Below are positions 1 through 12,890 of a stretch of DNA of 12,890 nt, in pieces. Location of the stretch: IMG/VR virus record IMGVR_UViG_2703718777_000025, positions 1-12,890 of that record. One strand, written 5' to 3'. Source of the stretch: a virus. Its lineage: Duplodnaviria; Heunggongvirae; Uroviricota; Caudoviricetes. The position numbers were made by a program, and so were the translations under genes. Position 1 is the stretch's first letter; each line of letters starts with the position of its first letter. The notes below the pieces were generated by a model. That model made no database searches, was not told where the DNA came from, and saw only the letters and a program-made list of their open reading frames with translations.

Positions 1-342
1 ATGATGAAAAAAAGTATTCTGGCGTTTCTGTTACTCACCAGTTCTGCAGCGGCGCTGGCTGCACCGCAGGTGATTACCGTCAGTCGTTTTGAAGTGGGTA
101 AAGACAAATGGGCGTTTAATCGCGAAGAGGTGATGCTGACTTGCCGACCGGGTAATGCTTTGTATGTTATTAATCCGAGTACCCTCGTGCAGTATCCTTT
201 AAACGATATCGCACAAAAGGAAGTTGCCAGTGGGAAGACCAATGCCCAACCCATTTCGGTGATTCAGATTGATGATCCTAACAATCCCGGCGAAAAAATG
301 AGTCTGGCACCGTTTATAGAACGAGCTGAAAAACTCTGTTAA
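1..342 (+). CDS. yebY: Small secreted protein with N-terminal signal peptide, YebY-like (host chromosomal gene)
   Basis: 113-aa ORF starting [22 protein letters not shown] (hydrophobic core plus AxA-type cleavage site), followed by a terminator. The YebY name is recalled from memory, not searched. Confidence 0.7.
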
Positions 343-376
343 TTACCTAAAATAGCCTTTTGATTTCCAATAAAAA

Positions 377-413
377 AACCGCCTCAGTTCTTTCACCAGA
401 ACGGGCGGTTTTT
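377..413 (+). terminator. Rho-independent terminator after the yebY-like gene
   Basis: A-run, then stem CCGCC(379-383)/GGCGG(404-408) with inner stem GTTCT/AGAAC, then T-run 409-413. Confidence 0.7.
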
Positions 414-500
414 AACATTTCAGCTGATGACCACCACGCTTTTTATTGACCATTTTGCACGCAAACTGGAAAACCTGGCGTCGTCATCTATTCTTAAAGG

Positions 501-603
501 GCAAGGCAACTAAGCCTGCATTAATGCCAACTTTTAGCGCACGGCTCTCTCCCAAGAGCCATTTCCCTGGACCGAATACAGGAATCGTATTCGGTCTTTT
601 TTT
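501..603 (+). ncRNA. sdsR: sdsR (RyeB) sigma-S-dependent small RNA
   Basis: Starts GCAAGGCAACTAAGCCTGCATTAATGCC, matching my recollection of SdsR. Ends with an 8-bp-stem hairpin CCGAATAC/GTATTCGG (572-594) and a T-run to 603. Possible -10 CTATTCT at 488-494. RyeA/SraC would be antisense across this. Confidence 0.7.
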
Positions 604-734
604 AATTGTATTTAAAATCAATTAGTTGCAAACGTCTCCCCGAAATTCCCCGAAATTTACTCGAATTTCTGTATTCCGGTCTTTTTTGGTTATATCACAA
701 CCAAAATACATTTAACAATCCATTTACGTAAAAA
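604..734. other. Candidate attL junction region
   Basis: Lies between the sdsR terminator and the int stop codon. Contains an 11-bp tandem direct repeat (T)CCCCGAAATT x2 at 637-658 and a degenerate second copy of the sdsR 3' end, GTATTCCGGTCTTTTTT at 671-687 versus GTATTCGGTCTTTTTTT at 587-603. The exact core cannot be set without attR. Confidence 0.4.
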
Positions 735-1811
735 TCAGAGCAGTAAGTACGTTTTTTCTCTCTCATCAAGATACAGTTTTGTTGTCTTCTCCGATGTGTG
801 ACCAAGTAGGCGCTGGGCAAATTCTTCTCCACATGTTTCTTTGTACAATCGTCCAGCCAGACTTCTGATCTCGTGAAAAGTTGGTGGGTTTTCACTGAAC
901 TGAATACCTGTTAATTTTCTGGCTGCGACAAATTTTTTTGTCAGGCCATCCGGGTGAATGCTGCCGTCAGGGCTGTTTTTTCTAATCCCGGCACTGATTA
1001 GATAATCTCCCCGGCTTACCAGGCGGCACCGTTCAACTACTGTACCAAGCCGTAGGCCAGCGACAGGAAGGCTGAGTGACAAGGGGATAGCAATCATCAT
1101 TCCTGTCTTAATTTGCCTGATGTGGAGACGATCATCATAAATATCACTGAACCGCATATTCGTTATGTCTTCGCGACGTTGTCCTGTTACAAGGGCTAAA
1201 TCCATAGCTAATGGGAACCATGCCGGAAGTTGATCTGCTGCCTCCCTGATGCAGTTGTATGTCTTTAGTTTCAGTCGTTCTCTTGTAACTACTATTTTCG
1301 GTGCTCTTGTTGGTGTTACTGGATTTTGAGATATACGTCCTTCAACAATGGCCTCGCGGAACATATCAGATAACACAGAACGCATTGATCCTGCCATCGT
1401 GTTTTTCCCTCCTTCAATCCACAAATCAAGAAACTCGGCAATATGGCGAGTGGTTATTTCTGTCAGTAAAATCTCTCCCAATTTTTCTTTTATTGTCTCC
1501 AGTTGATTTACCCGAATTTTATAAGTATTTCTGGACACTTTTCTCCTTATAAGAATCGTTTTGTAACGTTCAATCCAGTCTGCCATAGTAAATGAGTCGA
1601 ACCCTTTAAGTTTTTCAATTAAGGCAGCAGTAGAGTAGTTTTTGTATATATAATGATTTGCTTCAATTGCCTGCGCGATTGCATCTCTTCTTGAAATTTT
1701 ACCTAGTGTAAATTCTTCTTTCGTCAGAGGGTTGCGCCAGTAATATGCTTTGTCCCTCCTTCGATATGTTAAGTTTTTAGGCAAATTGGGATCGTATTTT
1801 TTCCGCTGCAT
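735..1811 (-). CDS. int: Tyrosine site-specific integrase, lambda Int family
   Basis: 358 aa. The N-terminus aligns with lambda Int (NLPKNL...YYWRNPLTKEEF versus lambda DLPPNL...YYCYRDPRTGKEF) and the C-terminus has the PTFHEIRSLAGRLY and LLGH motifs. ATG confirmed at 1809-1811. Confidence 0.95.
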   Translation of the reverse strand: MQRKKYDPNLPKNLTYRRRDKAYYWRNPLTKEEFTLGKISRRDAIAQAIEANHYIYKNYSTAALIEKLKGFDSFTMADWIERYKTILIRRKVSRNTYKIRVNQLETIKEKLGEILLTEITTRHIAEFLDLWIEGGKNTMAGSMRSVLSDMFREAIVEGRISQNPVTPTRAPKIVVTRERLKLKTYNCIREAADQLPAWFPLAMDLALVTGQRREDITNMRFSDIYDDRLHIRQIKTGMMIAIPLSLSLPVAGLRLGTVVERCRLVSRGDYLISAGIRKNSPDGSIHPDGLTKKFVAARKLTGIQFSENPPTFHEIRSLAGRLYKETCGEEFAQRLLGHTSEKTTKLYLDEREKTYLLL

Positions 1812-2058
1812 GTTTTAACTTCTCCAGTAACGGACTGTCTCTCCCTTGTCGCCCATTAGGCTGATGGTGTGTTATATCGGTATCAACCTTATTTGGGTTG
1901 ATATAGAAAGCTTCCGGAACCACCCTGTAACTCCTCCCGTGTAGTTCAGGTGCAGGATAAATGTTTCCATTCCTTGCCCATCGTCTCAGCGTTGATATTG
2001 ATGGTGGGTTATCCGGATATCTGAGTTTTCCCCACGTTTTGAGTGTCACAAGATTCAT
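1777..2058 (-). CDS. xis: Excisionase (Xis-like)
   Basis: Directly upstream of int and overlapping it by 35 nt. The MNLVTLKTW...TLRRWARNGNIYP region resembles lambda Xis. Start placed at the second ATG (2058), which has AAGAGG 7 nt upstream; the ATG at 2064 is the alternative. Confidence 0.8.
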   Translation of the reverse strand: MNLVTLKTWGKLRYPDNPPSISTLRRWARNGNIYPAPELHGRSYRVVPEAFYINPNKVDTDITHHQPNGRQGRDSPLLEKLKHAAEKIRSQFA

Positions 2059-2080
2059 TGCCATACCTCTTACGATATGA

Positions 2081-2109
2081 CCGCCAGTAAATATACAGAA
2101 TACTGGCGG
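2081..2109. promoter_or_regulatory. Perfect 9-bp inverted repeat just upstream of xis
   Basis: CCGCCAGTA(2081-2089), 11-nt loop, TACTGGCGG(2101-2109), lying between the ydaC-like stop and the xis ribosome binding site. Confidence 0.3.
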
Positions 2110-2164
2110 GTGTGGTTGATTTTTAATAATCAGCTATGAAGTTCTAATTTGTATATAATGCAAC

Positions 2165-2353
2165 TCACGAGGACAGAAGTTTCTCGCAATTAAAATTTAT
2201 CAGCTTTACTTTCTGCTCTCTGGACACGCCTGCTTCTTTTTTCCCTGAGAGCATTTTTTCGCATTCTGATTTCGTTAATTTAGATTTTGAATATCTTGTC
2301 CAGTTAGTAGGAGTGCCACCTTCTTTTTCAATAGTGGCAGTTATTTTATACAT
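2165..2353 (-). CDS. Small hypothetical protein, YdaC-like, translationally coupled to lar
   Basis: 62-aa reading (MYKITATIEKEGG...) starting at ATG 2351-2353 with GGAGGTG upstream. This ATG lies inside the last codons of lar (GGA GGT GTT CAT GTA TAA). The longer 86-aa track ORF has no ribosome binding site. Confidence 0.6.
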   Translation of the reverse strand: MYKITATIEKEGGTPTNWTRYSKSKLTKSECEKMLSGKKEAGVSREQKVKLINFNCEKLLSS

Positions 2354-2540
2354 GAACACCTCCATTATTATTTCCAGTAGTTCGTTTATTCCATCTTTCG
2401 AGTGCTTCTTTTTCACTTCCACCATAGCCAGTTCGGGATTCGCATCCGTTGCATTTTGCCCGGTAATATCCTGAAATTGCTTTCACTGTAACAGATGGAC
2501 AACCACAAAACGGACATGGTTTAACATCGTCATATCTCAT
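2346..2540 (-). CDS. ralR: Restriction alleviation protein Lar/RalR (zinc-binding CxxC...CxxC)
   Basis: MRYDDVKPCPFCGCPSVTVKAISGYYRAKCNGCESRTGYGGSEKEALERWNKR, 64 aa from ATG 2538-2540, matching the Rac RalR length. Upstream in-frame ATGs at 2552 and 2579 are alternatives; none has a strong Shine-Dalgarno. Confidence 0.8.
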   Translation of the reverse strand: MRYDDVKPCPFCGCPSVTVKAISGYYRAKCNGCESRTGYGGSEKEALERWNKRTTGNNNGGVHV

Positions 2541-2596
2541 AATTTTTGTCATAAAAACTGTCTCGCGTTGGCGGTGCATTACACCGCCAGGCTGAA

Positions 2597-3406
2597 TTAT
2601 TCTTCTGAATTATCGATCACACTGTATTCCCCGGTTAATACAGAGGAGTCTGCCGGATCGATTGTCAGTGGTTCCTTTTCATCCATTGATACTGCACGCT
2701 GGATTTCAATTGAGACAGGCAGGTATTTAAACAGGCGACGAATAGCCGTTTTTTTTGCCATTTCTTCCCAGTGAGTTACCCATGGCCCGTTATTACCAGC
2801 CTTACTCTGGCTGCGCACCAGCTCAATCTGTTTGCGCGTCATAACTTCAAACTGAGTACCTCCGTCTTTCAGTCTTGCGACAGCATAGACGTGGGTAACC
2901 GGGGCATCTTCGTTTTCTCCTGGGCGGTGTATTAACTTTTCATCAAGGCCAAATTCGAAATTAAATTCGTCACCTTCACGGACAACACGGGCTGACAGGC
3001 TGGCGATTTGACCTGAACGGCGAGCCAGATCAATCATGCCGCGATAGCCAATGATTAGCTGAACGTTTTTTTTACCGCTCTTTTCGTTTTTATTACCAAA
3101 AGGCAGTAAATATGCATGACCGAGGGCGCTACCTGGCTCAAGCCCGAGCTGTGAACACTGTACGATTGCACTGACAAAACTCATAGTGTCACAGTTTCCT
3201 AACGCCGGAACTTTACGAATTTCTGTGGTGGCGATACGGATCATACGTTCAGCCGTCATATGGCGTGGAAGAGCTGCTGCCAGTTGCTCTTTCATTGATG
3301 GCTGGTTAATAAAACTAATCACGTCGTTATTTTTAATTGCTGCTGGTGCACGGTTTCCCTGAGTTTTTTGCAGATCGGCTTTTGCGATTGGTGGTTGCTT
3401 AGTCAT
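2597..3406 (-). CDS. recT: RecT single-strand annealing recombinase
   Basis: 269 aa from [23 protein letters not shown], essentially the Rac RecT sequence as I recall it. AAGGA ribosome binding site 8 nt upstream. Start overlaps the recE stop at 3399-3406. Confidence 0.95.
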
Positions 3407-6080
3407 TTGCATATTCCTTAGCCCAGCGGGGCAGTGATAACGTCTTAATAGCTGGCCATTCATTGGTATTGAGGCAGTCAGCCAGGGTTCGCAGATTGCG
3501 GTGATATTCCAGCTGACCTGCCAGTTTTGCTTCTTCGCCCATCATGAAAATTTCAACCGGATAACGTCCGCATTCAATAGTTGTGCTGGCAACCAGAAAA
3601 ACGAAAGTTGGCTGCACTCCAAACTGTGCTTCATAACCGTCACTGTAGAATGCATCCTGAACGTGATAGCGGTAGTCGTAATAAGCGGTTTTGAATCGTT
3701 GAATATCCGCCGTAGTTTTCACGTCCATGATCCAGTGAAATTCAGGGATAATTTTGTCCGGACGGCACCGACACAAAATTCCTGTTTCAGGATCTTCCCA
3801 GTAAATTGATGATTCAGCGTGTCCGGCGCTTTCAACAAGCCATTGCCCCAGCGGCAAAGCCATAACGCTTTGATACATGAGTTCAATTTTCAGACCTTCT
3901 TCCGCAGTGATAACCGTTTTTCCTGTGCTTGCGCATTCCATCAGAAACGCTTTCTCTTCTTCTTTTCCGGCGTTTGTACGGCGGTTAAATTCAGGTGCTA
4001 CGATAAAGCGGTTACTGAATTCTTCCGGTTCAAGTACCCGGCAGTGGAAAGCGGTTCCTAAATCGAGCGTTTTTGTCTTTGTGTTGTCCACGGGGGCATT
4101 TTTACGCCACAAATACAGTGCCGGAGTATCAGCAATGTCATCGAGCTGAGACTTACTGACACCGGGACCTACGTGGTAATTCTCATTCGAAATTCCGTAA
4201 TAAATACCTGGCTCTATGTCTTCTACGATTACGGGATCTGCGACTTCGCCAGTTTCATCACTGCAATCGCGATGCGGATCGCTGCCATCGTTCTCCTTGT
4301 GCGGATGTTCAGCACCTTCCATTTCCTCCAGACCTTTTTCCTGATATTCATTCTGATTTTCTTCATTAAAGGTTTTCTGATACGTTGCGTCGCCCATCAC
4401 CGCGCCGCAGTCAGGACAGTTGCCGCCGCCAGCCTGACCGCAGGCGATGCAAACTTTCTCCGTTTCCTGTTGTTGCACTACTGGCTCAGGCTGTTCCGTT
4501 TCTGGCTCGTTTTGTTGCGTATTTGGGTCGTTCTGTTCCGCTTTCTGGTCGTTATGTTCCGTTTCTGGCTGATTCTGGTACACAGAGTCGCGGGTCTGGA
4601 TCCCCTTAACCCATTTCGGATCATTCGGGTCGCTAATCCCTTCAACAAATTCTCCGCGAGAGGCAGCCAGTAATTTGTCTGCATCGACAGGATTTTTGGG
4701 CGGAATGTTTTTCCGGGCTTCATGGAGTTCTGCCCGCAGTTTCTGATATTTCGCATCAACAGAATTTACCTGTGACTGAGCATCCAGCGACTGCGTGTCC
4801 TGATGATGTTCAGTTGCATCCGGTTCCACTGTTTCAGCCGTTGCCTGTTCATCTGCCATTGCGCAAGATGGTTGCAGTTTTTCTTCATCATCCTGTTTTT
4901 CTTCTTCTTCTGTTACACGCTGCGGCATCGGGGCAGAGGAACGACCGCAGGCAATATCCACGATTTCCGGATCAGGGTTGGCATGATCAGTTTCAGTCAG
5001 TACTTTGTTCAGATATTCAGTGACGTGTGCGGGGGTAACCTCGATCCCAATTGGTGCTTCTTTTACGGACGCAACCACGATGGCGCGGGAATAATCCAGC
5101 CCGCCAGGCATGGTGATGAATTTGTCGCGGAAAACAGAAAAGGGCGGTTTATTTTCAGCGATAATTTCCTCGACACGTTTAGCGTGTGCCGGATGAAGGT
5201 TATAAATGTCCACGTCCATTGAACGAGCCAGTACGCCAGTGGCTACGTCGCGCGCCAGTGACGTCAGATCGTGAACGAAACCTTCGCCGCGATCGGTGAG
5301 GTTCCCGCCGCCAGCATTAGCGCCGGAAGCCGTGCGCGTGATGCGTGAAACACGATTTCCTTTCATCCACTCTTTTGTCAGCAGACCACGATCGGTGTAG
5401 TCTGCGTCCAGGTATGCTTCGAAAAAAGCAGTCATCAGCCCCAGGCTTGAATTGCCTGGATTAGGGAAAACTCTGTCAGTATCACGCACCAGTTTGTGGA
5501 GATCGCGAATTTCCAGCGGGTCGAGCAGGCTGGTTTTGTGGGAAACAGCCAGGGCAGTAACAGCTGGTAGTTCTTCAGCTCGTGCAATGTGTAATGCCTG
5601 GAGTTCGTCGCGTGAAACGTGCGTCACCGGTTTTTCGCTGCCGTGTTGAGCAAGCCAGCGAATGGGCAGCTCCTGACCGGAAATCGGGAGTAGCATATTC
5701 TCCTCAATCTCCGTCATGTCTTCGCCATTAACATTGGTATTGTCAGTGCTGGCTGGTTTGTCCTGCGCAGAGGATGAGGGCGCGATAAATACCATTGTGA
5801 TGCCATCTTCCCCGCCTTTTTCGTAACGGTTGCAGAATTCCGTATCAAATACGCCTTCTGGCGGGAGGTCATCAACAACGGGCAAATTGACGCGAACAGG
5901 TTTTTTGAAGTCATCTTCATCGTAGCCAGCATCATCAATCGCAACAGCACCACGGGAGATGGCAATGGATAATTTTTTCGCTTCAGCCCAGTAAAAACCG
6001 CCTTTAATACCGAGACGTTTTCTGACTTTGTCATTTTTTGCTTCGTAATACAGTGGGTAAACTTGTTTATCGGTGCTCAT
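3399..6080 (-). CDS. recE: RecE exonuclease VIII (5'-3' dsDNA exonuclease)
   Basis: 893 aa. The C-terminal two-thirds match my recollection of Rac RecE ([40 protein letters not shown]...[10 protein letters not shown]). Has an internal CxxC...CxxC motif ([16 protein letters not shown]). The first ~100 aa look different from the K-12 protein. Confidence 0.95.
4492..4575. repeat. Four imperfect 21-bp tandem repeats inside recE
   Basis: Units TGTTCCGTTTCTGGCTCGTTT / TGTTGCGTATTTGGGTCGTTC / TGTTCCGCTTTCTGGTCGTTA / TGTTCCGTTTCTGGCTGATTC. They encode heptad-like [28 protein letters not shown] in the RecE frame. Confidence 0.8.
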
Positions 6081-6151
6081 TGTTTTTTAACCTCAACTCA
6101 GATTAAAATTCGTTTTGTTCAGTGAATGATCTTGCCGGATACACACTGTTC

Positions 6152-6176
6152 ATAGCCTGCGCCATACGCAGGCTAT
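6152..6176 (+). terminator. Strong hairpin in the racC-recE intergenic region
   Basis: ATAGCCTGCG(6152-6161), loop CCATA, CGCAGGCTAT(6167-6176), followed on the plus strand by TTCTTTC. It reads as a terminator only for plus-strand (antisense) transcripts; on the minus strand no U-tract follows. Confidence 0.35.
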
Positions 6177-6181
6177 TTCTT

Positions 6182-6457
6182 TCAGATTTCACCTTTTAAT
6201 TTCATTGCAATTAGAGTTGCCAGAAATTCGGCTTTTTTTTCTGCGGGCAGATTCTTTCCGATATGCACCAGGCACATTTTTTTGACACCTTCATCAAGTG
6301 TTTTTACGTTGCCTGATGGACCATCGATATCAACCACAGTGAATGGGGTTTCTTTATTTTCTGTTTTAATTACGTAGCCAATGCGCTTTCCTTCCAGATT
6401 CACCTCGTGAACAATGTCATCGGTAGTTACAACAGTGGCTTCATAATTGGTAATCAT
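6182..6457 (-). CDS. racC: RacC
   Basis: 91 aa from MITNYEATVVTTDDIVHEVNLEGKRIGYVIKTENK, matching my recollection of Rac RacC. GGAG ribosome binding site upstream of ATG 6455-6457. Confidence 0.9.
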   Translation of the reverse strand: MITNYEATVVTTDDIVHEVNLEGKRIGYVIKTENKETPFTVVDIDGPSGNVKTLDEGVKKMCLVHIGKNLPAEKKAEFLATLIAMKLKGEI

Positions 6458-6531
6458 GTTTTTCTCCTTAATTAAGGTTGAGCGAATACCTGCCATTTCT
6501 GGCATAAATTCAGTTTCGAATAGTCAATTAA

Positions 6532-6702
6532 TTAAAGTTCATGTGCCATCTGGTCTTTTTCGGCACAAGATTCACTGCAATATTTTCTCGGTTCGTCTTT
6601 TGATAAAATCCCGTGCATGAAGTGAAGCATTCTTTCAATAGCTTTGCTTTCTTCAACGTCTTTTTTGCAAAGGTGGTAAGCACATTTTATTTTCTTAGTC
6701 AT
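6532..6702 (-). CDS. ydaE: YdaE-like small cysteine-rich (zinc-binding) protein
   Basis: Not in the supplied ORF track. My own translation of the minus strand gives 56 aa [56 protein letters not shown]. Its start codon overlaps the kilR stop codon. Confidence 0.85.
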   Translation of the reverse strand: MTKKIKCAYHLCKKDVEESKAIERMLHFMHGILSKDEPRKYCSESCAEKDQMAHEL

Positions 6703-6923
6703 CACCATGACTCCGCCTTTACAGGTAAACCATCACGACCGAGGAAGACTTTAATCATGCGGTCAGTAATGCATGTTTTTGTGGTCAGGTTACGAATATA
6801 TAGTTTTCGCTTTTTAATATTGTTTGCCGAGGCAATATATGTCCGGCCTTCATGAAGAACATAATCGCCAGGAGTCACACACTGACGTGGTATTTCATCA
6901 GTTCCGAAGTGATGTGCAATCAT
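6702..6923 (-). CDS. kilR: KilR cell-division (FtsZ) inhibitor
   Basis: 73 aa from [32 protein letters not shown], matching Rac KilR. GGAG ribosome binding site 6 nt upstream of ATG 6921-6923; the longer track ORF starts inside that site. Confidence 0.9.
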
Positions 6924-7096
6924 AATTATCTCCATTTTTACAAATGAACTTTGTTGATGCGGTGCCTGGTGCCTCCAGGTGACTGCAACCAGTTAACAAT
7001 TACAGTCGGCTTTCCCACCCAAACCAATAAGGACTAACATGACTTTTAACTGTGCCACGTGCGCTTAGCCGCATTCACCGCATCACAAAATTCACT

Positions 7097-7145
7097 TAAA
7101 AAAGGGCGGACATCAGCCGAACTTCAAGAAAAAACTGATGCCGCC
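7097..7145 (-). terminator. Candidate intrinsic terminator for leftward (minus-strand) transcription, upstream of kilR
   Basis: Stem GGCGGACATCAG(7105-7116)/CTGATGCCGCC(7135-7145), 11 bp with a one-base bulge and an 18-nt loop. On the minus strand it is followed at once by U6 (reverse complement of A-run 7098-7103). Confidence 0.35.
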
Positions 7146-7324
7146 AGGACTACACACAGCAATGTCGTTATTTACAACCGGAGGCGCACTCCCACCATTT
7201 AAATTTAACAGACAAGACCGACTCTTTATGGATATCGGAAATGCGCCTTCGTGTTGTGCCCGGTTTTATTTCACCACCTCCGGGCTTCGGTGGTTTTCGT
7301 TATTCCCCAACAGCGAAAATTAGG

Positions 7325-7675
7325 TTAATCTGAATATCCCCCAACAGATGGAAGGATTTTTCTATGCTCGAAAATCAGACCTTGAAGGTTGCCTGCCCTG
7401 ATTGCGGCAGTGAGATGCTCAAGCGGCCCGATGATTTTGACTTTGACACTAATTTCGTTGGCGTTAGTTGTGCCGAATGTGGTCGAGAAATCACTAAGGA
7501 CGATGTTATTAAGCAAGGAAAAAATGTAGTTCAGAAACAAGTCAATGACATGCTCCGGAACACCCTCAAAGGCAGCGGGTGGAAGTTTAAATAACCCATG
7601 TATCGCACTAAAGTGTTCCGTTACTTCTGTAGCGTCTATGGTAAGTTTGATAGGCGCTATTTTCACTCCCGTCAT
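7325..7675 (-). CDS. Hypothetical 116-aa protein, first ORF downstream of a strong leftward promoter
   Basis: ATG 7673-7675 with GAGGTG 6 nt upstream; about 70-nt leader from the promoter at 7752-7780. Fully overlaps the zinc-ribbon ORF on the other strand, so one of the two may be spurious. Confidence 0.45.
   Translation of the reverse strand: MTGVKIAPIKLTIDATEVTEHFSAIHGLFKLPPAAFEGVPEHVIDLFLNYIFSLLNNIVLSDFSTTFGTTNANEISVKVKIIGPLEHLTAAIRAGNLQGLIFEHRKILPSVGGYSD
7364..7594 (+). CDS. Small zinc-ribbon protein (CPDCG...CAECG), function unknown
   Basis: 76 aa, ATG 7364 with GGAAGGA 7 nt upstream. Two CxxCG motifs about 23 residues apart are typical of a zinc ribbon. Lies entirely inside the antisense ORF 7325-7675. 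Confidence 0.5.
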   Translation: MLENQTLKVACPDCGSEMLKRPDDFDFDTNFVGVSCAECGREITKDDVIKQGKNVVQKQVNDMLRNTLKGSGWKFK

Positions 7676-7751
7676 ACATCACCTCAAATCTTTTCCCTTA
7701 ACGCCGGGTGGCGGAACTAAAACCTACAGCGCCGTGCTGTTCTCGATAGAA

Positions 7752-7780
7752 ATATTAGTGACGCGTATATTTTAAGTCAA
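7752..7780 (-). promoter_or_regulatory. Near-consensus sigma-70 promoter reading leftward (candidate pL analogue)
   Basis: On the minus strand TTGACT (plus coordinates 7780-7775), 17-nt spacer, TAATAT (7757-7752). It sits just past the racR terminator and points toward the 116-aa ORF and the kilR-recET block. Confidence 0.5.
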
Positions 7781-7876
7781 CAGCAAGGCGTATTATATTT
7801 TTGATTTTGTAACTATGTAAATGTTTTTTCAAGGGAAAAATATTAGTTATACAGCTGATTTGCAGAAGTTATGGCA

Positions 7877-7910
7877 CAAAAAAAACCGACTAAGACGTCG
7901 GTTTTTTTTT
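7877..7910. terminator. Bidirectional rho-independent terminator downstream of racR
   Basis: A8 run, stem CCGAC/GTCGG, T9 run (AAAAAAAACCGACTAAGACGTCGGTTTTTTTTT), 27 nt past the racR stop. Confidence 0.75.
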
Positions 7911-7936
7911 GTTGTGGGTGGGGTAGTGAGCGGTGG

Positions 7937-8398
7937 CTACTGGTTACGTTTCTTTAGTGCCAGCATGTTCTCGAAGGCTTCCTCGTAGAGCTTGTTTAGT
8001 CCACGTAGCTGGTTAAGGAGTTTGGCTTTTTCTGACGCAGGTAGAATCTCGAAGAGGTTAAGTAACTCTGCCTGTTCTTCATTGACCAGCCTCCATCCTT
8101 TGCCTGAAAAGCTATCATCATAAGTATCTGATGATCTTACATAATTCATTAAGTCTTTAAGGTCTTCTCGAATGTCCTCTGGTTTTACCTTTAACAGAGC
8201 CGCAAATTTTAGCGCAGCGTCGGTATTTACCGGTATCTTGCCGTTCAGATACTGGCTAACGGTGCCTTGAGATTCGAATCCCAACAACTCAGCCGCCAAC
8301 TCTTGAGTCAGCTTCAGCTCTTTTTTTCTTGCATTCCATGCGGCTTTTAAATTCTTGCTCGCTTCTGGAGTTGCAATCACTTCGCGTGTTTTTTTCAT
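7937..8398 (-). CDS. racR: Prophage repressor, XRE/CI-type helix-turn-helix, RacR-like
   Basis: 153 aa with helix-turn-helix LTQELAAELLGFESQGTVSQYLNG. Divergent from the cro-like gene. No S24 peptidase-like C-terminal domain. ATG 8396-8398 has no Shine-Dalgarno and a -10-like TAAACT 6 nt upstream, suggesting a leaderless mRNA. Confidence 0.8.
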   Translation of the reverse strand: MKKTREVIATPEASKNLKAAWNARKKELKLTQELAAELLGFESQGTVSQYLNGKIPVNTDAALKFAALLKVKPEDIREDLKDLMNYVRSSDTYDDSFSGKGWRLVNEEQAELLNLFEILPASEKAKLLNQLRGLNKLYEEAFENMLALKKRNQ

Positions 8399-8404
8399 AC
8401 ATAG

Positions 8405-8475
8405 AGTTTATTTGTTTTACCAATATTATCAAAGATAGTCTGACTATTGATCTTTAAAATTAGTAGGGCTAATAT
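8405..8475. promoter_or_regulatory. Divergent promoter and operator region between racR and ydaS
   Basis: Plus-strand promoter TTGATC(8447-8452), 17 nt, TAATAT(8470-8475). Minus-strand promoter TTGATA (plus 8433-8428), 17 nt, TAAACT (plus 8410-8405). A 13-bp palindrome ATAGTCtGACTAT (8435-8447) lies between the two -35 boxes; a second inverted repeat ATTAG-N5-CTAAT is at 8458-8472. Confidence 0.5.
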
Positions 8476-8505
8476 TTGCTCGAGGCATAACGTAGAAGGT
8501 TGGCT

Positions 8506-8781
8506 ATGAACTTAAGAGACTATTTAAAAGAGAAACATATCACCCAGCTACAGTTTGGGAAGCTAACGGGTTTATCTCAGGTGCATGTAAGTCGAGTGCT
8601 GGGGGGCTATGAAAGATTCAGCCCTGAAAAAGCATTACGTGTTGCTGAAGTAACGAATTTCGAGGTTACACCTCATGAACTCCGGCCTGATATCTACCCG
8701 AATCCAACCGACGGTTTACCTGTTGGATGTAAGGCTAACACACAAAATACACAGGAGTTGATTCATGAAAATCAGGCATGA
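8506..8781 (+). CDS. ydaS: Cro-like helix-turn-helix protein, YdaS family
   Basis: Helix-turn-helix LTGLSQVHVSRVLGG. In the cro position and overlapping the start of ydaT. The track ORF begins at a TTG (8500); the first ATG is 8506 with GAAGG 6 nt upstream. Confidence 0.8.
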   Translation: MNLRDYLKEKHITQLQFGKLTGLSQVHVSRVLGGYERFSPEKALRVAEVTNFEVTPHELRPDIYPNPTDGLPVGCKANTQNTQELIHENQA

Positions 8782-9187
8782 GCACATCGAATCAGTGCTG
8801 TTAGCCCTGGCAGCTGAAAAAGGGCAGGCATGGGTAGCCAGTGCAATTACTGAAGAATATCTGCGCCAGGGAGGCGGCGAATTGCCCCTGGTACCAGGCA
8901 AGGACTGGAATAATCAGCAGAACATCTATCACCGTTGGTTAAAAGGTGAAACGAAAGCGCAAAGGGAAAAAATTCAGAAACTGATCCCTGCGGTTCTGGC
9001 AATTCTTCCGCGCGAGCTGCGTCACCGACTCTGCATCTTCGATACCCTGGAACGCCGTGCATTACTGGCGGCGCAGGAAGCGTTGAGTACGGCAATTGAT
9101 GCGCATGATGATGCAGTCCAGGCCGTTTACCGGAAAGCACATTTCAGCGGTGGTGGGTCGCCCGGCGATTCTGTCGTAGTGCATTGA
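8765..9187 (+). CDS. ydaT: YdaT (CII-like regulator of Rac-type prophages)
   Basis: 140 aa from MKIRHEHIESVLLALAAEKGQAWVASAITEEYLRQGGGELPLVPGKDWNNQQNIYHRWLKGE, near-identical to my recollection of Rac YdaT. AGGAG ribosome binding site upstream. Confidence 0.9.
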   Translation: MKIRHEHIESVLLALAAEKGQAWVASAITEEYLRQGGGELPLVPGKDWNNQQNIYHRWLKGETKAQREKIQKLIPAVLAILPRELRHRLCIFDTLERRALLAAQEALSTAIDAHDDAVQAVYRKAHFSGGGSPGDSVVVH

Positions 9188-9232
9188 TTGAAATTAATCG
9201 TGCCGGATTGTTTTGTTCGGTATCAGTTAAAT

Positions 9233-9251
9233 GTAACGCTGCGAGCGTTAC
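9233..9251. repeat. Palindrome GTAACGC-N5-GCGTTAC, copy 1, overlapping the ydaU ribosome binding site region
   Basis: GTAACGCTGCGAGCGTTAC, perfect 7-bp arms, 14 nt upstream of the ydaU ATG. Confidence 0.6.
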
Positions 9252-9264
9252 AAGGTGAAAACAA

Positions 9265-10053
9265 ATGGCTTCAAACTGGATAAAGCTCGAGGTTATTACG
9301 CCGGATAAGCCGGAAATATTCAGGCTTGCTGAGATTCTGAATATTGATCCAGATGCCGCATTAGGGAAGGTTATTCGCTTCTGGGCATGGGCGGATCAAC
9401 AAATGATAGACGGTAATGCAGATTGTAACGCTCGCGGCGTTACAAAAAGTGCAATAGATCGCATCACTTTTATGGCTGGTTTTGCTGATGCGTTAATTCA
9501 GGTTGGATGGCTGGTCGAAAATGACGGTGGGCTTTCTCTACCTAACTTTGAACGTCATAACGGGAAAAGCTCTAAAAAACGGGCGGTTACAAACGAGCGA
9601 GTTACAAAAATACGCGAACTGAAACGAAAAGGTAACGCTGGCAGCGTTACACAAACGGATCAAAAAGCGTTACCAGAGGAAGAGGAAGAGGAAGATATAA
9701 ATACTGATCTCCCCCTAAATCCCCCTCGCCAAAAACGAGCGTCTAAAAAATTCGAGCCGGAGGCTATCGAGCTGCCTGACTGGTTGCCGGAAACACTCTG
9801 GCATGAGTGGGTTCAGTTCAGGCAGGCATTGCGAAAACCGATTCGAACGGAGCAGGGCGCTAACGGGGCGATACGGGAACTGGAAAAATTCCGTCAGCAG
9901 GGTTTTACACCTGAGCAGGTGATTCGACACAGCATCGCCAATGAATACCAGGGCTTGTTCGTACCGAAAGGTGTTCGGCCTGAGACGTTGCTCCGACAGG
10001 TTAACACCGTCTCGTTGCCGGACAGTGCGATCCCGCCAGGCTTCAGGGGGTAA
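9265..10053 (+). CDS. ydaU: YdaU-like replication protein (O-like; DUF1376-type N-terminus recalled)
   Basis: 262 aa in the position of lambda O, directly upstream of a DnaC-like gene. Has an acidic linker PEEEEEEDIN. AAGGTGA ribosome binding site upstream. Confidence 0.8.
   Translation: MASNWIKLEVITPDKPEIFRLAEILNIDPDAALGKVIRFWAWADQQMIDGNADCNARGVTKSAIDRITFMAGFADALIQVGWLVENDGGLSLPNFERHNGKSSKKRAVTNERVTKIRELKRKGNAGSVTQTDQKALPEEEEEEDINTDLPLNPPRQKRASKKFEPEAIELPDWLPETLWHEWVQFRQALRKPIRTEQGANGAIRELEKFRQQGFTPEQVIRHSIANEYQGLFVPKGVRPETLLRQVNTVSLPDSAIPPGFRG
9425..9443. repeat. Palindrome GTAACGC-N5-GCGTTAC, copy 2, inside ydaU
   Basis: GTAACGCTCGCGGCGTTAC, perfect 7-bp arms; encodes CNARGVT. Confidence 0.6.
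9632..9650. repeat. Palindrome GTAACGC-N5-GCGTTAC, copy 3, inside ydaU
   Basis: GTAACGCTGGCAGCGTTAC, perfect 7-bp arms; encodes GNAGSVT. Related half-sites: GTTACAAA x2 at 9586-9608 and GCGTTAC at 9666-9672. Confidence 0.6.
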
Positions 10054-10059
10054 CAGACC

Positions 10060-10800
10060 ATGAAAAATATTGCGACAGGCGGCGTTCTGGAGCGTATCCG
10101 CAGACTGACCCCACCACATGTAACCGCCCCATTCAGAACGGTTGCGGAGTGGCGTGAGTGGCAACTTACTGAAGGCCAGAAACGTTGCGAGGAGATCAAC
10201 CGTCTGAATCGTCAGTTGCGGGTGGAAAAAATTCTGAATCGCTCTGGCATCCAGCCGTTGCACCGTAAATGCTCGTTTGCGAATTACCAGGTGCAGAACG
10301 ACGGCCAGCGATACGCGTTAAGCCAGGCGAAATCCATCGCTGATGAACTGATGACCGGGTATACAAATTTTGCGTTCAGCGGAAAACCTGGTACCGGGAA
10401 GAATCACTTAGCGGCAGCTATCGGGAATCGCCTGCTGAAAGACGGTCAGACAGTGATTGTGGTTACCGTGGCTGATGTTATGAGCGCCCTGCACGCCAGC
10501 TATGACGACGGGCAGTCAGGCGAAAAATTTTTGCGTGAACTGTGCGAAGTGGACCTCCTGGTTCTTGACGAAATTGGCATCCAGCGTGAGACGAAAAACG
10601 AGCAGGTGGTACTGCACCAGATTGTTGACCGCCGGACGGCATCACTGCGCAGTGTCGGGATGCTGACAAACCTGAATCATGCCGCAATGAGCACGCTTCT
10701 TGGTGAGAGGATTATGGACCGGATGACCATGAACGGTGGTCGTTGGGTGAATTTTAACTGGGAGAGCTGGCGGTCAAACGTTGGACGTCAGGGTATGTGA
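10060..10800 (+). CDS. ydaV: DnaC/IstB-like AAA+ helicase loader
   Basis: 246 aa with Walker A FSGKPGTGKNHLAAAIG and Walker B DLLVLDEIG. Confidence 0.9.
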   Translation: MKNIATGGVLERIRRLTPPHVTAPFRTVAEWREWQLTEGQKRCEEINRLNRQLRVEKILNRSGIQPLHRKCSFANYQVQNDGQRYALSQAKSIADELMTGYTNFAFSGKPGTGKNHLAAAIGNRLLKDGQTVIVVTVADVMSALHASYDDGQSGEKFLRELCEVDLLVLDEIGIQRETKNEQVVLHQIVDRRTASLRSVGMLTNLNHAAMSTLLGERIMDRMTMNGGRWVNFNWESWRSNVGRQGM

Positions 10801-10825
10801 GAATTTTTAACGAGGTGAATTTTCG

Positions 10826-11596
10826 ATGGAAACCGTATTACATGCACTGAAAGCGATGGGAAAAGCCAATTCTGTTGAACTGGCGGCACGAATTGATATC
10901 AGCCGTGAAGAAGTTCTCAACGAACTGTGGGAGCTCAAAAAAAATGGCGTTGTTGATAAAACGGGTCACACCTGGTTTCTGGCTGTCGAAGGTGAATCCC
11001 GGGTAACCGAAGAGCGGCCAGTAAAATCTGAAACACAGGATATGCTGACCGAAGAGGTCGCTCCAAAAGTTAGCGCTAACATGATGATTGAGTTTATCGC
11101 TCAGGAGGGGGCTAAAACCTGTGAAGAAATAGCGGGTAAGTTCGGTGTCAGTACTCGCAAGGTTGCTTCCACGCTGGCGGTGGTAACCGCAACGGGGCGG
11201 CTGGCACGCGTTAATCAGAACGGTGGATTTCGTTACTGCATGCCGGGCGATAATTTACCAGCAGAGCCGAAAGCCGCGCTGGTAACGGAAAGTGATGGTA
11301 AGGCCTTTCCTCAGCCAGCAGGTGCTGCGTTACCAGTCCGGGAAGCCGCAACACAGGAAGAAATTAAAACAGAAACTGTGGCGGACATTGTGCAGCCGTT
11401 GCCATCGTTTACCGAAACGCAAGCAGATGAGCTGATTTTTCCGTCCCTTCGCAGGGCAAACCTGGCGCTGCGCAGGGCGAAAAGTGATGTTCAGAAGTGG
11501 GAGCGAGTCTGCGCCGCGCTGCGGGAGCTGAACAAGCACCGGGATATTGTTCGGCAGATTGTCGATTCATCCGGTCGTATTGTGTCGGAAAAGTGA
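10826..11596 (+). CDS. Hypothetical prophage protein with two winged-helix-like segments (possibly YdaW/DUF1627-like)
   Basis: 256 aa, GAGGTGA ribosome binding site. Two segments of similar pattern (SVELAARIDISREEVLNELWELKKNGVV and CEEIAGKFGVSTRKVASTLAVVTATGRLARV). Family assignment from memory is uncertain. Confidence 0.75.
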   Translation: METVLHALKAMGKANSVELAARIDISREEVLNELWELKKNGVVDKTGHTWFLAVEGESRVTEERPVKSETQDMLTEEVAPKVSANMMIEFIAQEGAKTCEEIAGKFGVSTRKVASTLAVVTATGRLARVNQNGGFRYCMPGDNLPAEPKAALVTESDGKAFPQPAGAALPVREAATQEEIKTETVADIVQPLPSFTETQADELIFPSLRRANLALRRAKSDVQKWERVCAALRELNKHRDIVRQIVDSSGRIVSEK

Positions 11597-11611
11597 TTGC
11601 CGGAGGCGCTT

Positions 11612-12004
11612 ATGGCAAAAGTATTTACACCAGAAGAGCGGGAAGAAGTGAAGGCGCGCATTGTGGAATTCGTGCGCCTGAGCGGACGAGAAACTTTTCG
11701 ACAACTGGCAGATAAAACGGGTGTCAGTAAGACCGCTATTCGTCGTTTATCTGGTGCGCTTGCGGCCAGTGGTGATGTCTGGCTCTCTGGTTGCGGGGTA
11801 TTTCTATCAGAGCAGGCGTATCGCGTATGGCGTAAGACACCGGAGAAGGCTGCTGACCCGACACTGATTCGAAAGTTACCTGACGGAGAAATACGTCGTT
11901 ACAACAGACGGCAGAACATAATTTGTCGTGAGTGCCGCCAGAGCGAAGTTATGCAGCGTGTGCTGGCGTTCTATCGGGGTAATTTTCAGGAGGTGATGGA
12001 GTGA
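11612..12004 (+). CDS. Hypothetical protein with helix-turn-helix-like segment
   Basis: 130 aa from ATG 11612 (GGAGG 5 nt upstream); the track ORF starts at an upstream TTG. Helix-turn-helix-like FRQLADKTGVSKTAIRRL; C-terminal CRECRQ. Confidence 0.7.
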   Translation: MAKVFTPEEREEVKARIVEFVRLSGRETFRQLADKTGVSKTAIRRLSGALAASGDVWLSGCGVFLSEQAYRVWRKTPEKAADPTLIRKLPDGEIRRYNRRQNIICRECRQSEVMQRVLAFYRGNFQEVME

Positions 12005-12300
12005 GGGTGAGGGTTTATATCGCCGGTCCGATGACCGGGTATAAAAATTTCAACCGTGAGGCGTTCCACAAGGCGGAAGAGGAACTGAAACGGGAAGGGC
12101 ATACAGTCTTAAACCCGGCAGTACTTCCGGACGGGCTGACACAGCCGCACTACATGGATATTTGCATGTCAATGATACGCTGCGTGGATGCGATTTACAT
12201 GCTGAAAGGCTGGCAGCGGTCGGCAGGCGCTAAGGCAGAACTGGCACTGGCGGAGAAGCTGGGGCATACAGTTATTTTCCAGGAGGCAAACAGTGAGTAA
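12001..12300 (+). CDS. DUF4406-like protein (nucleoside 2-deoxyribosyltransferase-like fold)
   Basis: N-terminal VYIAGPMTG motif and DAIYMLKGWQRSAGAKAE segment characteristic of this family. GTG start at 12001 or 12007, overlapping the previous stop (ATGGAGTGAGGGTG). Confidence 0.7.
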   Translation: MRVRVYIAGPMTGYKNFNREAFHKAEEELKREGHTVLNPAVLPDGLTQPHYMDICMSMIRCVDAIYMLKGWQRSAGAKAELALAEKLGHTVIFQEANSE

Positions 12301-12757
12301 CCAATGGCGACCAGATATTTGCCCAATAACCGGACGTGCATTTTTCATGTGGATTGAGCATCCGAAATTGGGAAATGTACCGACGTATGGTGGCCCATTA
12401 GACAGTTACACCATTCCAACAAAGGACAGCGATGGTGAGTTTTCGTGTGAGCGTTACGATCATGATTTCGGTGGCTGGGTAGAAAGCGAATGTCTAGGGT
12501 TATATCTGATTGATGATGAAGAACAATGCAGAGTCTACGAACTCGAGGAGCGCGTTAAAGAGCTGGAAGCGCGGGAAGTTCATTTACCGACTCGCTACGG
12601 CCTTCGATATGGACATCCGATAAATGCTGATGAGCGCCACGTCATGATACCTAAAGAAAATGGCTGCTGGATTTATCTGGCTGATTTAGAGCACGTACTA
12701 CGTGTTGCTGGTATTCGCATCAAAGGAGAGGAGCATGGAAATCAAACCAGAAGATGA
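12293..12757 (+). CDS. Hypothetical prophage protein
   Basis: 154 aa, GTG start with AGGAGG 6 nt upstream, overlapping the previous stop. No family recognised. Confidence 0.65.
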   Translation: MSNQWRPDICPITGRAFFMWIEHPKLGNVPTYGGPLDSYTIPTKDSDGEFSCERYDHDFGGWVESECLGLYLIDDEEQCRVYELEERVKELEAREVHLPTRYGLRYGHPINADERHVMIPKENGCWIYLADLEHVLRVAGIRIKGEEHGNQTRR

Positions 12758-12890
12758 GTTAAGTAATATTGTTTTATTTCCGGTAAAAGAGGATGACCCA
12801 CGTAATCAGGTTAATTTTCTTTATGAGCCATCGGAAAGACCATATTGTCATCACGCCTCTGTCCGGGTTGACGAAAAAGAGCGTCAGGTC
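12735..12890 (+). CDS. Hypothetical protein, 5' partial (runs off window end)
   Basis: ATG 12735 with AAAGGAGAGGAG upstream. Open for 52 codons to the window edge (MEIKPEDELSNIVLFPVKEDDPRNQ...). Overlaps the end of the preceding gene. Confidence 0.5.
   Translation, partial: MEIKPEDELSNIVLFPVKEDDPRNQVNFLYEPSERPYCHHASVRVDEKERQV

Follow-up and report, generated by a model that had tools for sequence, protein, structure and literature searches.

The 21-bp tandem repeats of a prophage recE gene vary the length, and not the reading frame, of an acidic linker

Introduction

Do tandem repeats inside the coding sequence of recE, the gene of exodeoxyribonuclease VIII, switch the reading frame of the protein, or do they only change its length? 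The question is raised by a recE gene located on 12,890 nucleotides of DNA from a virus of the Caudoviricetes (positions 1 to 12,890 of IMG/VR record IMGVR_UViG_2703718777_000025). This whole stretch is called the window below, positions are numbered within it, and the features of recE and recT that we describe are all on its minus strand. The gene contains four imperfect 21-bp repeats, and an earlier note, made from the sequence alone, held that this array is a likely site of both length and frame variation, that an indel in it would exchange an acidic linker for a basic one, and that the first hundred residues or so of the protein appear divergent. We found no description of the RecE repeats, or of the cysteine motif beside them, in the literature. 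The alleles compared here answer the question plainly: the array is a length polymorphism, not a frame switch.

The recE gene and its prophage

The gene (3399..6080) is an ORF of 893 codons in a Rac-like lambdoid prophage of E. coli O157:H7. Its product is RecE, and it is an ordinary annotated prophage allele: the gene is 100% identical to the annotated O157:H7 recE (WP_045893700.1, in NZ_CP062782.1), and the protein scores 1836 bits against the NCBIfam equivalog NF007259 (cut-off 1269), residues 1-893 being aligned with positions 1-877 of the 877 of the model. Pfam finds PF06630 and PF12684. The latter corresponds to the PD-(D/E)XK 5'-3' exonuclease domain (aa 632-893, 3402..4187), which also matches PDB 3h4r in sequence (E = 1e-175) and, according to a Foldseek comparison of the RecE model with that structure, in fold (E = 2e-25, TM-score (target) 0.84). 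The RPD...MDVK motifs, which we take to be catalytic from the work on 3H4R, are intact. The 5'-3' exonuclease activity on double-stranded DNA and the RecT-dependent recombination activity are presumably retained, judging from a nuclease domain that is about 97% identical to that of the characterised K-12 enzyme.

The gene of the annealing partner, recT, lies directly downstream; its annotated extent, 2597..3406, shares 8 nt with the end of recE (the longest ORF extends to 3463). It is identified by Pfam RecT (9e-57) and by the annotation of the identical O157:H7 locus. According to the latter, the prophage neighbours of recE and recT are Kil, a YdaE-family gene, ralR, excisionase and integrase. 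The setting is thus that of the early-left region of a lambdoid prophage, with recT as operon partner. The RecE of the K-12 Rac prophage (866 aa; nuclease structure PDB 3H4R) occupies a similar position, with recT, ralR, kil and a ydaE-family gene nearby. The two prophages differ in their integrase and in their site: the one described here has an integrase of the lambda type and lies beside yebY/copD, whereas K-12 Rac has intR and lies beside ttcA.

The K-12 recE gene is 92% identical to that of the window at the DNA level, but this homology begins only at gene nt 339 and then runs to the end. The N-terminal segment (aa 1-113, 5742..6080), which we call A-type, contains a predicted small alpha/beta domain (aa 6-100, pLDDT about 80) and shows only weak homology with the K-12-type N-terminus (40% identity over 40 aa). 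The suspected divergence is therefore real with respect to K-12, for the first 113 residues or so, but not in the sense of a rarity: the A-type N-terminus occurs in 709 of 5426 complete E. coli genomes, in recE and in other "exonuclease" genes, and the curated model NF007259 covers it. As far as these sequence comparisons tell, the N-terminus of this RecE is a common alternative allele, unlike that of K-12 and not unusual.

AlphaFold2 models of full-length RecE and of aa 1-490 predict helical domains at aa 190-245 and aa 262-385 (4926..5513, pLDDT 67-93), followed by a first acidic linker (aa 387-440, 4761..4922; net charge -13) that is predicted to be disordered (pLDDT 27-40). This linker contains a run of glutamates with a one-codon polymorphism, EEE, EEEE and EEEEE being found in otherwise identical alleles. 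Foldseek searches of PDB and BFVD matched only the nuclease domain; the N-terminal two-thirds gave no match below E = 0.1, in searches whose sensitivity is limited by the use of multi-domain models (pTM 0.33).

The repeat array and its neighbours

Tandem Repeats Finder places the array at 4491..4577 (aa 503-530; the earlier note gave 4492-4575), with a period of 21, 4.1 copies, 75% matches and a score of 102. In the recE frame, the four units read NQPETEH, NDQKAEQ, NDPNTQQ and NEPETEQ, and are followed by a degenerate PEPVVQQ. The units are 10-18/21 nt identical to one another, the closest pair being units 1 and 4 (18/21). The repetition does not merely reflect the composition of the protein: the array matches itself at a lag of 21 at 47 of 63 positions, against 27.9 +/- 1.9 in a codon-shuffle null whose maximum was 36 (0 of 1000 shuffles reached 47), and the significance is unchanged when the local acidic region is shuffled alone.

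The 28 residues of the array have a net charge of -7, consist to 93% of Q, N, P, T, S, E, D, G and K, and include no hydrophobic residue, which confirms the acidic, Q/N/P-rich character first attributed to them. AlphaFold2 gives the array a pLDDT of about 30, against values reaching 80-93 in the flanking domains, and its model shows aa 492-542 devoid of secondary structure; the disorder is a prediction, based on composition and on a model built from 31 sequences (pTM 0.33). We note that the heptad period could evoke a coiled coil, a reading that we rejected since the units lack hydrophobic a/d positions and three of the four contain a proline.

On its upstream side, the array is preceded by a 22-aa motif (aa 469-490, 4611..4676), the sole invariant stretch of the family: in 31 diverse homologues, R475, G481, I482, S483, D484, D487, K489 and W490 are invariant. 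In the Salmonella phages Gifsy-1, Gifsy-2 and SPN3UB, conservation at the DNA level is limited to the part that encodes this motif. On the downstream side, 13 residues past the last good unit, begins a CxxC-x7-CxxC motif (aa 544-559, 4404..4451; C544, C547, C555 and C558), as the earlier note had seen. All four cysteines are present in 200 of the 207 sequences that were scanned, and Cys547 is replaced by arginine in the other 7. The motif may be a zinc ribbon that binds zinc; against this, its pLDDT is low (45-49), it has no Pfam match, and it is absent from distant homologues. An acidic tail (aa 560-631, 4188..4403; net charge -16, pLDDT 26-35) then leads to the nuclease domain. The 22-aa motif, the cysteine motif and the acidic tail are common to the RecE of the window and that of K-12.

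Length variation between alleles

The expectation that the array varies in length is borne out. In homologues, the stretch from KGIQTRD to the first cysteine measures 24, 30, 37, 38, 44, 45 or 52 aa, which corresponds to one to five heptads and to linker lengths that step by 7 aa. The RecE of the window has four heptads and a linker of 45 aa, while that of K-12 has two degenerate heptads and a linker of 30 aa. Four copies are found in about 81% of the sampled E. coli matches. One allele (P0042) is identical to the protein of the window, with 0 substitutions, save for an exact deletion of 21 aa (three units) between units 1 and 4; in another (P0074), the unit NDPNTQQ is duplicated. The structure of these alleles suggests that heptads are gained and lost by replication slippage or unequal recombination; they would come and go as whole units because the DNA repeats have a length of 21 bp and an identity of 62-86% between them.

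In this respect the array resembles the general class of in-frame, variable-number repeats found in disordered linkers, whose features are imperfect units of a multiple of 3, polar or acidic low complexity, a copy number that differs between near-identical alleles, and predicted disorder. Tandem repeats are reported to be enriched in intrinsic disorder (PMC7230257). The RecE array departs from the general class in the narrowness of its range (1-5) and the dominance of a single state (4), and in that it lies between two short elements that are strongly constrained.

The reading frame

The +1-frame ORF pointed out in the earlier note (4478..4759, 93 aa, TTG start) is present and does read basic across the repeats. 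It ends with a TAG just past them, and three-frame translation reveals stops of the +2 frame within them, so that an indel shifting the frame would truncate RecE before the cysteine motif and the nuclease, instead of exchanging an acidic linker for a basic one. Such indels are not seen. The frame is kept at all 79 scorable IMG/VR loci and in each of the 59 rows that span the array in the sample of E. coli genomes, where the difference in length is 0, -3, -21, -24 or -45 nt, so that neither a variation of the frame nor any homologue that reads the array in an alternative frame is found among them. More generally, the array-spanning matches in the E. coli and phage samples are all in frame save for one assembly artefact: the apparent -31 nt allele of phage vB_EcoS-683R6, whose gene is annotated as two CDS, contains a run of 23 N and is not a frameshift. 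A comparison of the +1 peptide with 5.8 billion proteins yielded no shared words and no match.

These observations bear on the idea of a contingency locus, in which indels in the repeats would make RecE phase-variable, alternating between the full-length protein and a truncated or basic-linker form. The locus has in common with the simple-sequence contingency loci a tandem repeat within coding sequence, and its +1 frame is indeed open and basic across the repeats. The resemblance ends there: since 21 is divisible by 3, slippage of whole units preserves the frame; no informative allele departs from it, the one apparent exception being due to a run of N; both alternative frames terminate; and the +1 peptide has no counterpart in the databases. 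We consider phase variation to be largely refuted already, and hardly credible.

It could also be argued that 4478-4759 is a genuine overlapping gene for a small basic protein, on the grounds that 93 codons are open there, from a TTG, on the strand that encodes recE. The equivalent frame is however 52 codons or less in K-12, in locus L002 and in more than 41 of 97 loci, where it is closed before the repeats. Eight synonymous changes of recE in the 22-codon motif, which all fall within the ORF, would each alter an amino acid in the +1 frame, and besides the failure to find a homologue, no promoter-like site was found in 4100-4900. For practical purposes this hypothesis is refuted, and its probability is close to nil; we judge that the ORF is not a gene. 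The basic reading would simply be a by-product of shifting codons rich in GAA, CAG and AAC by one base, and would never be used.

A mosaic block of 450 bp

A conserved block of 450 bp (aa 466-615, 4235..4685), which includes the heptads with the 22-aa motif before them and the four-cysteine motif after them, is common to prophage genes of mosaic structure that otherwise have unrelated N-terminal and C-terminal modules. A 321-nt probe that spans the array (window 4400-4720) matches 4729 of 5426 E. coli genomes (about 87%), with a median of 2 copies and up to 9, and the block has matches in 41 phage records. The junction at which C-terminal modules are exchanged is at about aa 612-618 (window 4228-4244), homology to the genes of other nucleases ceasing at gene nt 1837-1853.

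Among these genes are lambdoid "exonuclease" or "3'-5' exonuclease" genes (PHROG 2082/20376; PF16473 at the C-terminus), which contain the motif, four heptads and the cysteine motif at 82-86% DNA identity. They encode a C-terminal DEDDh 3'-5' exonuclease where RecE has its PD-(D/E)XK domain, and they are not followed by recT: excisionase and integrase come directly after them. DnaQ-like nucleases of lambdoid Rec modules have been noted before (PMC12315714). In the 814-aa form from O157, the whole N-terminal 615 aa are also common with RecE. In the 823-aa Rv2179c-like exonuclease gene of strain N767, on the contrary, the N-terminal 465 aa are unrelated to those of RecE, and the sole DNA homology is gene nt 1396-1846 (82.7%). 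Two further members (P0164 and P0180) have a C-terminal domain with no PDB, Pfam or NCBIfam match, and PHROG matches that are annotated only as "exonuclease".

Selection on the protein and on the DNA

Nei-Gojobori counts for the gene of the window against that of L002 give dS of about 1.0 and dN = 0 in the 22-aa motif, which indicates selection on the protein. The dN/dS ratio is about 0.06 in the cysteine motif, 0.26 in the heptads and 0.7 in the acidic tail. In the array, dS is 0.35-0.6, as high as in the flanks, which implies that there is no constraint at the DNA level.

This is relevant to a proposal in which the repeats act as DNA, either as iteron-like sites or as a homology patch for recombination between lambdoid prophages, the peptide being incidental. 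Four direct repeats with a period of 21 bp (two helical turns) do resemble origin iterons, and the iterons of the lambda origin are located inside the coding sequence of gene O. Moreover, the 450-bp block constitutes a homology shared by unrelated genes, which most E. coli genomes carry, often several times. But besides the synonymous rates, which are no lower in the array and are even about 1.0 in the adjacent motif, a DNA element is difficult to reconcile with a copy number that ranges from 1 to 5 and with the degenerate units of K-12. The mosaic junctions are at gene nt 1396 and about 1846, outside the array; the interval without promoter-like sites mentioned above includes it; and it is the O-like gene, at 9423-9750, that contains palindromes of the iteron type. 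The iteron or DNA-element reading is unlikely, and we give only a very small probability to any role of the repeats as DNA.

An interdomain spacer or binding units?

The explanation that we favor, with good though not full confidence, is that the 21-bp repeats encode a disordered, acidic, proline-containing interdomain spacer of RecE, whole units of which are gained and lost in frame. The spacer would separate the 22-aa motif, upstream, from the CxxC-x7-CxxC motif, downstream, which is followed by the acidic tail that leads to the PD-(D/E)XK nuclease. A change in copy number would probably do no more than lengthen or shorten a flexible tether, and catalysis would be little affected. As expected of a spacer, in distant homologues (P0145, P0147, P0152 and L095) the heptads and the cysteine motif are replaced by unrelated acidic low-complexity sequence of another length. 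The spacer reading also agrees with the report that the nuclease domain of RecE can by itself replace the full-length protein genetically (PMC11611040).

Two observations sit less well with a pure spacer: the predominance of four copies in the E. coli sample, and a dN/dS below 1 in the heptads. They imply that neither length nor composition is free, and that the array may be more than a filler.

Alternatively, the heptads might be units with a binding function, for instance as a multivalent short linear motif, a mimic of DNA by acidic residues or a metal site, and their number would tune the affinity or valency for whatever the block of conserved motif and cysteine motif docks to. The predominance of four copies and the ratio of 0.26 indeed denote some constraint, and the array lies within the sole block that survives the exchange of N-terminal and nuclease modules. 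It is also reported that full-length RecE performs better than the nuclease domain in linear-linear recombination (PMC11611040), which shows that the region upstream of the nuclease does something. Against this reading, the heptads diverge, both from one another within the array and between alleles. K-12 RecE, the reference whose activity has been established by experiment, has only two degenerate units, the heptads are wholly absent from distant homologues, and they have no known partner. We find this second explanation improbable, and retain that of a spacer.

A related and rather doubtful idea, which we put forward tentatively, is that aa 466-560, from the 22-aa motif through the heptads to the cysteine motif, might form an autonomous docking module for a common partner from the host or the phage, in which the number of heptads would set the reach. 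Prophages may then keep the block while they swap the scaffold upstream and the effector downstream. The effectors seen downstream are the RecE-type nuclease, a long PD-(D/E)XK nuclease, the DEDDh 3'-5' exonuclease and tails that are not nucleases.

Implications

As first posed, the repeat finding is of little importance: it concerns a common annotated allele of RecE with an in-frame polymorphism of linker length. It is of some use to those who engineer full-length RecE for linear-linear recombineering, since natural alleles tolerate one to five heptads, and since the constrained parts of an otherwise uncharacterised region of the protein come down to 22 residues and four cysteines. If the docking module were real, it could account for what linear-linear recombination gains from the N-terminal two-thirds of RecE. 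Last, the 450-bp block marks a family of prophage genes that is highly mosaic and that about 87% of E. coli genomes carry, and as such it helps to interpret many of the "exonuclease" annotations in these genomes.

Identity and genomic setting of recE

E. coli O157:H7 strain Z869 has, adjoining yebY/copD, a Rac-like lambdoid prophage that the 12.9-kb window matches at 100%. The minus strand carries, in this order, the genes for the integrase (735-1811) and the excisionase, a DUF1187 gene, ralR, recT (2597-3406), recE (3399-6080, 893 aa), a racC-like ORF upstream of recE (6182-6505), a ydaE-family gene and kil; past kil lie the repressor region and then, on the plus strand, O-like and DnaC-like replication genes. 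RefSeq annotates the racC-like gene of the identical locus as a frameshifted pseudogene; the ORF here codes for 107 aa. RacC is reported to block a retron toxin triggered by RecE (bioRxiv 10.1101/2020.06.22.160242). The O-like gene (262 aa, ORF 9265-10053, plus strand) contains palindromic GTAACGC..GCGTTAC iteron-like repeats and a 14-bp tandem repeat (9423-9750) just upstream of the DnaC-like gene (10060-10800), and these repeats are probably the replication origin of the prophage.

By all the sequence tests available, the 893-aa ORF is RecE. The protein matches the NCBIfam equivalog NF007259 over its full length (1836 bits, for a cut-off of 1269), Pfam detects Exonuc_VIII and the PD-(D/E)XK-like DUF3799, residues 632-893 align with the solved RecE nuclease domain 3H4R (E = 1e-175), and a Foldseek search with the predicted model finds 3H4R again.

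The N-terminus does differ from that of K-12 RecE, as the earlier note had it, since the alignment with K-12 recE begins only at gene nt 339, but it is not unusual: the first 113 aa are a common alternative allele that occurs in 709 of 5426 E. coli genomes, where it is part of recE and also of other genes from the RecE family. It has weak homology to the K-12 N-terminus around a shared PVV(N/D)DLPxEG (40% identity over 40 aa, pairwise E = 7e-8), the curated RecE model extends over it, and it is predicted to fold (pLDDT ~80). No structural relative of aa 1-490, whole or in part, was found in the PDB or BFVD, in agreement with a 2023 review in which the N-terminal two-thirds of RecE are a domain of unknown function (PMC11611040).

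The repeat array and its copy number

Tandem Repeats Finder places the array at 4491-4577 (period 21, 4.1 copies, 75% matches). Its lag-21 matches amount to 47 of 63, to be compared with 27.9 ± 1.9 (maximum 36) in codon shuffles; none of 1000 shuffles reaches 47, and the result is the same for shuffling of the whole gene and of the local acidic region, so the periodicity is no artefact of composition. In the recE frame the array reads as 28 residues, followed by a degenerate PEPVVQQ; these 28 residues have a net charge of -7, 93% of them are polar, charged or proline/glycine, and none is hydrophobic. The 16-residue cysteine motif, CxxC-x7-CxxC, starts 13 residues past the array, and an ORF in the +1 frame (4478-4759) is indeed present and basic over the repeats. 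Together with the difference from K-12 RecE, these results confirm the four-part observation from which the analysis started.

The prediction that the array varies in length is also borne out. The linker, measured from KGIQTRD to the first cysteine, is 24, 38, 44, 45 or 52 aa long in the 120 closest proteins and 30, 37, 38, 44 or 45 aa long in 79 IMG/VR prophage loci. These length classes are 7 aa apart, apart from a separate one-codon QQ/QQQ difference, and correspond to every heptad number from 1 to 5, K-12 having two and the window four. Of 5426 complete E. coli genomes, 4729 have matches to a 321-nt probe across the array (window 4400-4720), the median being 2 places per genome and the maximum 9. 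We sampled 60 records at even intervals down the ranking of these matches; 59 of them span the array. Compared to the window, 47 are shorter by 3 nt and one is of equal length (four heptads in both cases), one is shorter by 21 nt and one by 24 nt (three heptads), and nine are shorter by 45 nt (two heptads), so that four units are found in about 81% of the sampled records, three in 3% and two in 15%.

Such changes can be recent. The homologous protein P0042 (8 contigs) matches the window protein at every one of 872 aa and lacks exactly 21 aa; the deletion fuses unit 1 to unit 4, two units that are identical at 18 of 21 nt; in another homologue, P0074, NDPNTQQ is duplicated. One-codon length polymorphisms also occur at other sites of the linkers in alleles otherwise identical to the window protein, in an E-run (EEE/EEEE/EEEEE; 4908-4919, minus strand, aa 388-391) and in a G-run (GG/GGG; 4422-4430, minus strand, aa 551-553).

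The reading frame is conserved

The earlier note also expected the frame to vary, an indel turning the linker from acidic to basic. The 21-bp unit is a multiple of three, and the flanks of the array are in one frame in all 79 scorable IMG/VR loci and in all 59 sampled E. coli genome matches; the informative alleles among species representatives and phage records are likewise in frame, so that no informative out-of-frame allele was found in any of these four sets. In one phage record the length differs by 31 nt and recE appears as two separate CDS; the sequence at this place includes a run of 23 N, so the difference is an assembly artefact. Nor would a frameshift exchange the linker: translation would stop at a TAG right behind the repeats in the +1 frame and within them in the +2 frame, so any product would be about 530 aa long and devoid of the cysteine motif and of the nuclease. 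The frame-swap reading is refuted.

An overlapping gene at 4478-4759 is refuted. A search of 5.8 billion database proteins found none with three 5-residue words in common with the +1 peptide, and there is no promoter-like site in window 4100-4900. Neither in K-12 nor in the N767 gene does the corresponding frame stay open as far as the repeats, and it closes as early in more than 41 of 97 loci. The basic character of the peptide results from GAA-, CAG- and AAC-rich codons being read one base over.

A probable flexible spacer between conserved elements

An AlphaFold2 run based on a 31-sequence alignment predicts no secondary structure for aa 492-542, at a pLDDT of about 30, against 67-93 for the nuclease, the N-terminal domain (aa 6-100) and two helical domains (aa 190-245 and 262-385). 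The heptad period does not reflect a coiled coil, which is excluded by the lack of hydrophobic positions and by a proline in most units.

Nei-Gojobori counts between the window and N767, likewise a four-unit allele, give a dS of ~1.0 and a dN of 0 for the 22-aa motif (4611-4676, minus strand, aa 469-490), 0.59 and 0.035 for the cysteine motif, 0.61 and 0.16 for the heptads, and 0.34 and 0.23 for the acidic tail; the counts are small, and the same pattern is seen in other pairs. In 31 diverse homologues the sole invariant columns are R475, G481, I482, S483, D484, D487, K489 and W490, and the 22-aa motif is the one invariant stretch of the family. The distant members P0145, P0147, P0152 and Citrobacter L095 retain the 22-aa motif; where the heptads and the cysteine motif would be, they have low-complexity sequence that is also acidic, though unrelated and different in length. 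Taken together, the predicted disorder, the selection pattern and these replacements point to the array being a spacer, an acidic, flexible stretch that drifts in length by entire units. It lies between two short elements on which selection at the protein level is strong. It is unlikely that the array acts at the DNA level instead, as iterons or as a homology patch, since it shows no drop in synonymous divergence and is not where the mosaic junctions of the gene family lie.

Substitutions in the cysteine motif, namely Cys547 to Arg (CAARGQ), Cys to Tyr (CTAYGQ) and CPDCA, occur in P0082-type alleles (7 proteins) and in loci L022, L074 and L063; either the motif is dispensable in some prophage copies, or these copies are decaying.

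A conserved block in a mosaic gene family

DNA comparisons reveal a strongly mosaic family. This recE gene is homologous to K-12 recE over gene nt 339-2682, to the O157 814-aa "exonuclease" over nt 1-1853, to a 1049-aa form over nt 1-1837, and to the 823-aa "3'-5' exonuclease" of strain N767 over nt 1396-1846 only. The latter segment, a 450-bp block (window 4235-4685, minus strand, aa 466-615; L002:6001-6283 and L003:5001-5318 in two homologous loci), is the sole DNA homology of recE with the gene of this Rv2179c-like 3'-5' exonuclease, the N- and C-terminal parts being unrelated. Within it lie the 22-aa motif, the heptads and the cysteine motif, together with a portion of the acidic tail. The C-terminal partners found in the family are the RecE-type PD-(D/E)XK nuclease, a longer PD-(D/E)XK carrying an insertion, the Rv2179c-like DEDDh 3'-5' exonuclease (PF16473), short tails without nuclease and, in P0164 and P0180, a domain of ~270 aa in place of the nuclease. 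This last domain has no Pfam or PDB sequence match, and PHROGs name it 'exonuclease', apparently by association only. P0134 (703 aa) is an in-frame RecE-RecT fusion with its junction within the cysteine motif; in P0133 (756 aa), an internal deletion links 'ANAGGGN' (aa ~255) to 'GGGNCPDCG', apparently via a short repeated run of Gly codons.

The block is narrowly distributed, with only 77 matching representatives in a 1.84-billion-protein library. Among species representatives, the form with heptads and cysteine motif is found in Escherichia and Shigella, and in MAG contigs labelled Roseburia, Veillonella and Proteobacteria; the block also occurs in isolated phages (Tritos, Evi, mEp460, Rac-SA53 and Stx phages, for example). 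An E. coli-type recE is present on L087 (MAG 'Roseburia sp.'), L093 (MAG 'Veillonella parvula') and PP818812.1 ('Actinobacillus phage vB_Apl-pPE4'), at 76-80% to the window block, with a linker like that of Rac K-12 in L087; mis-binning, contamination or a questionable host label is the likely cause in the Firmicutes-MAG and Actinobacillus-phage cases.

A 2025 survey of lambdoid Rec modules described DnaQ-like nucleases, nuclease-less "RecE-2" proteins and probable domain shuffling (PMC12315714), so that the mosaicism is not new in outline; our literature search found no description of the shared motif-spacer-cysteine block. That this block could be a docking module, kept while other modules are shuffled around it, is an idea to which we give rather little credence. 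As for the array, it is an in-frame variable-number repeat in a RecE linker that is predicted to be disordered, the RecE itself being a standard, annotated one.
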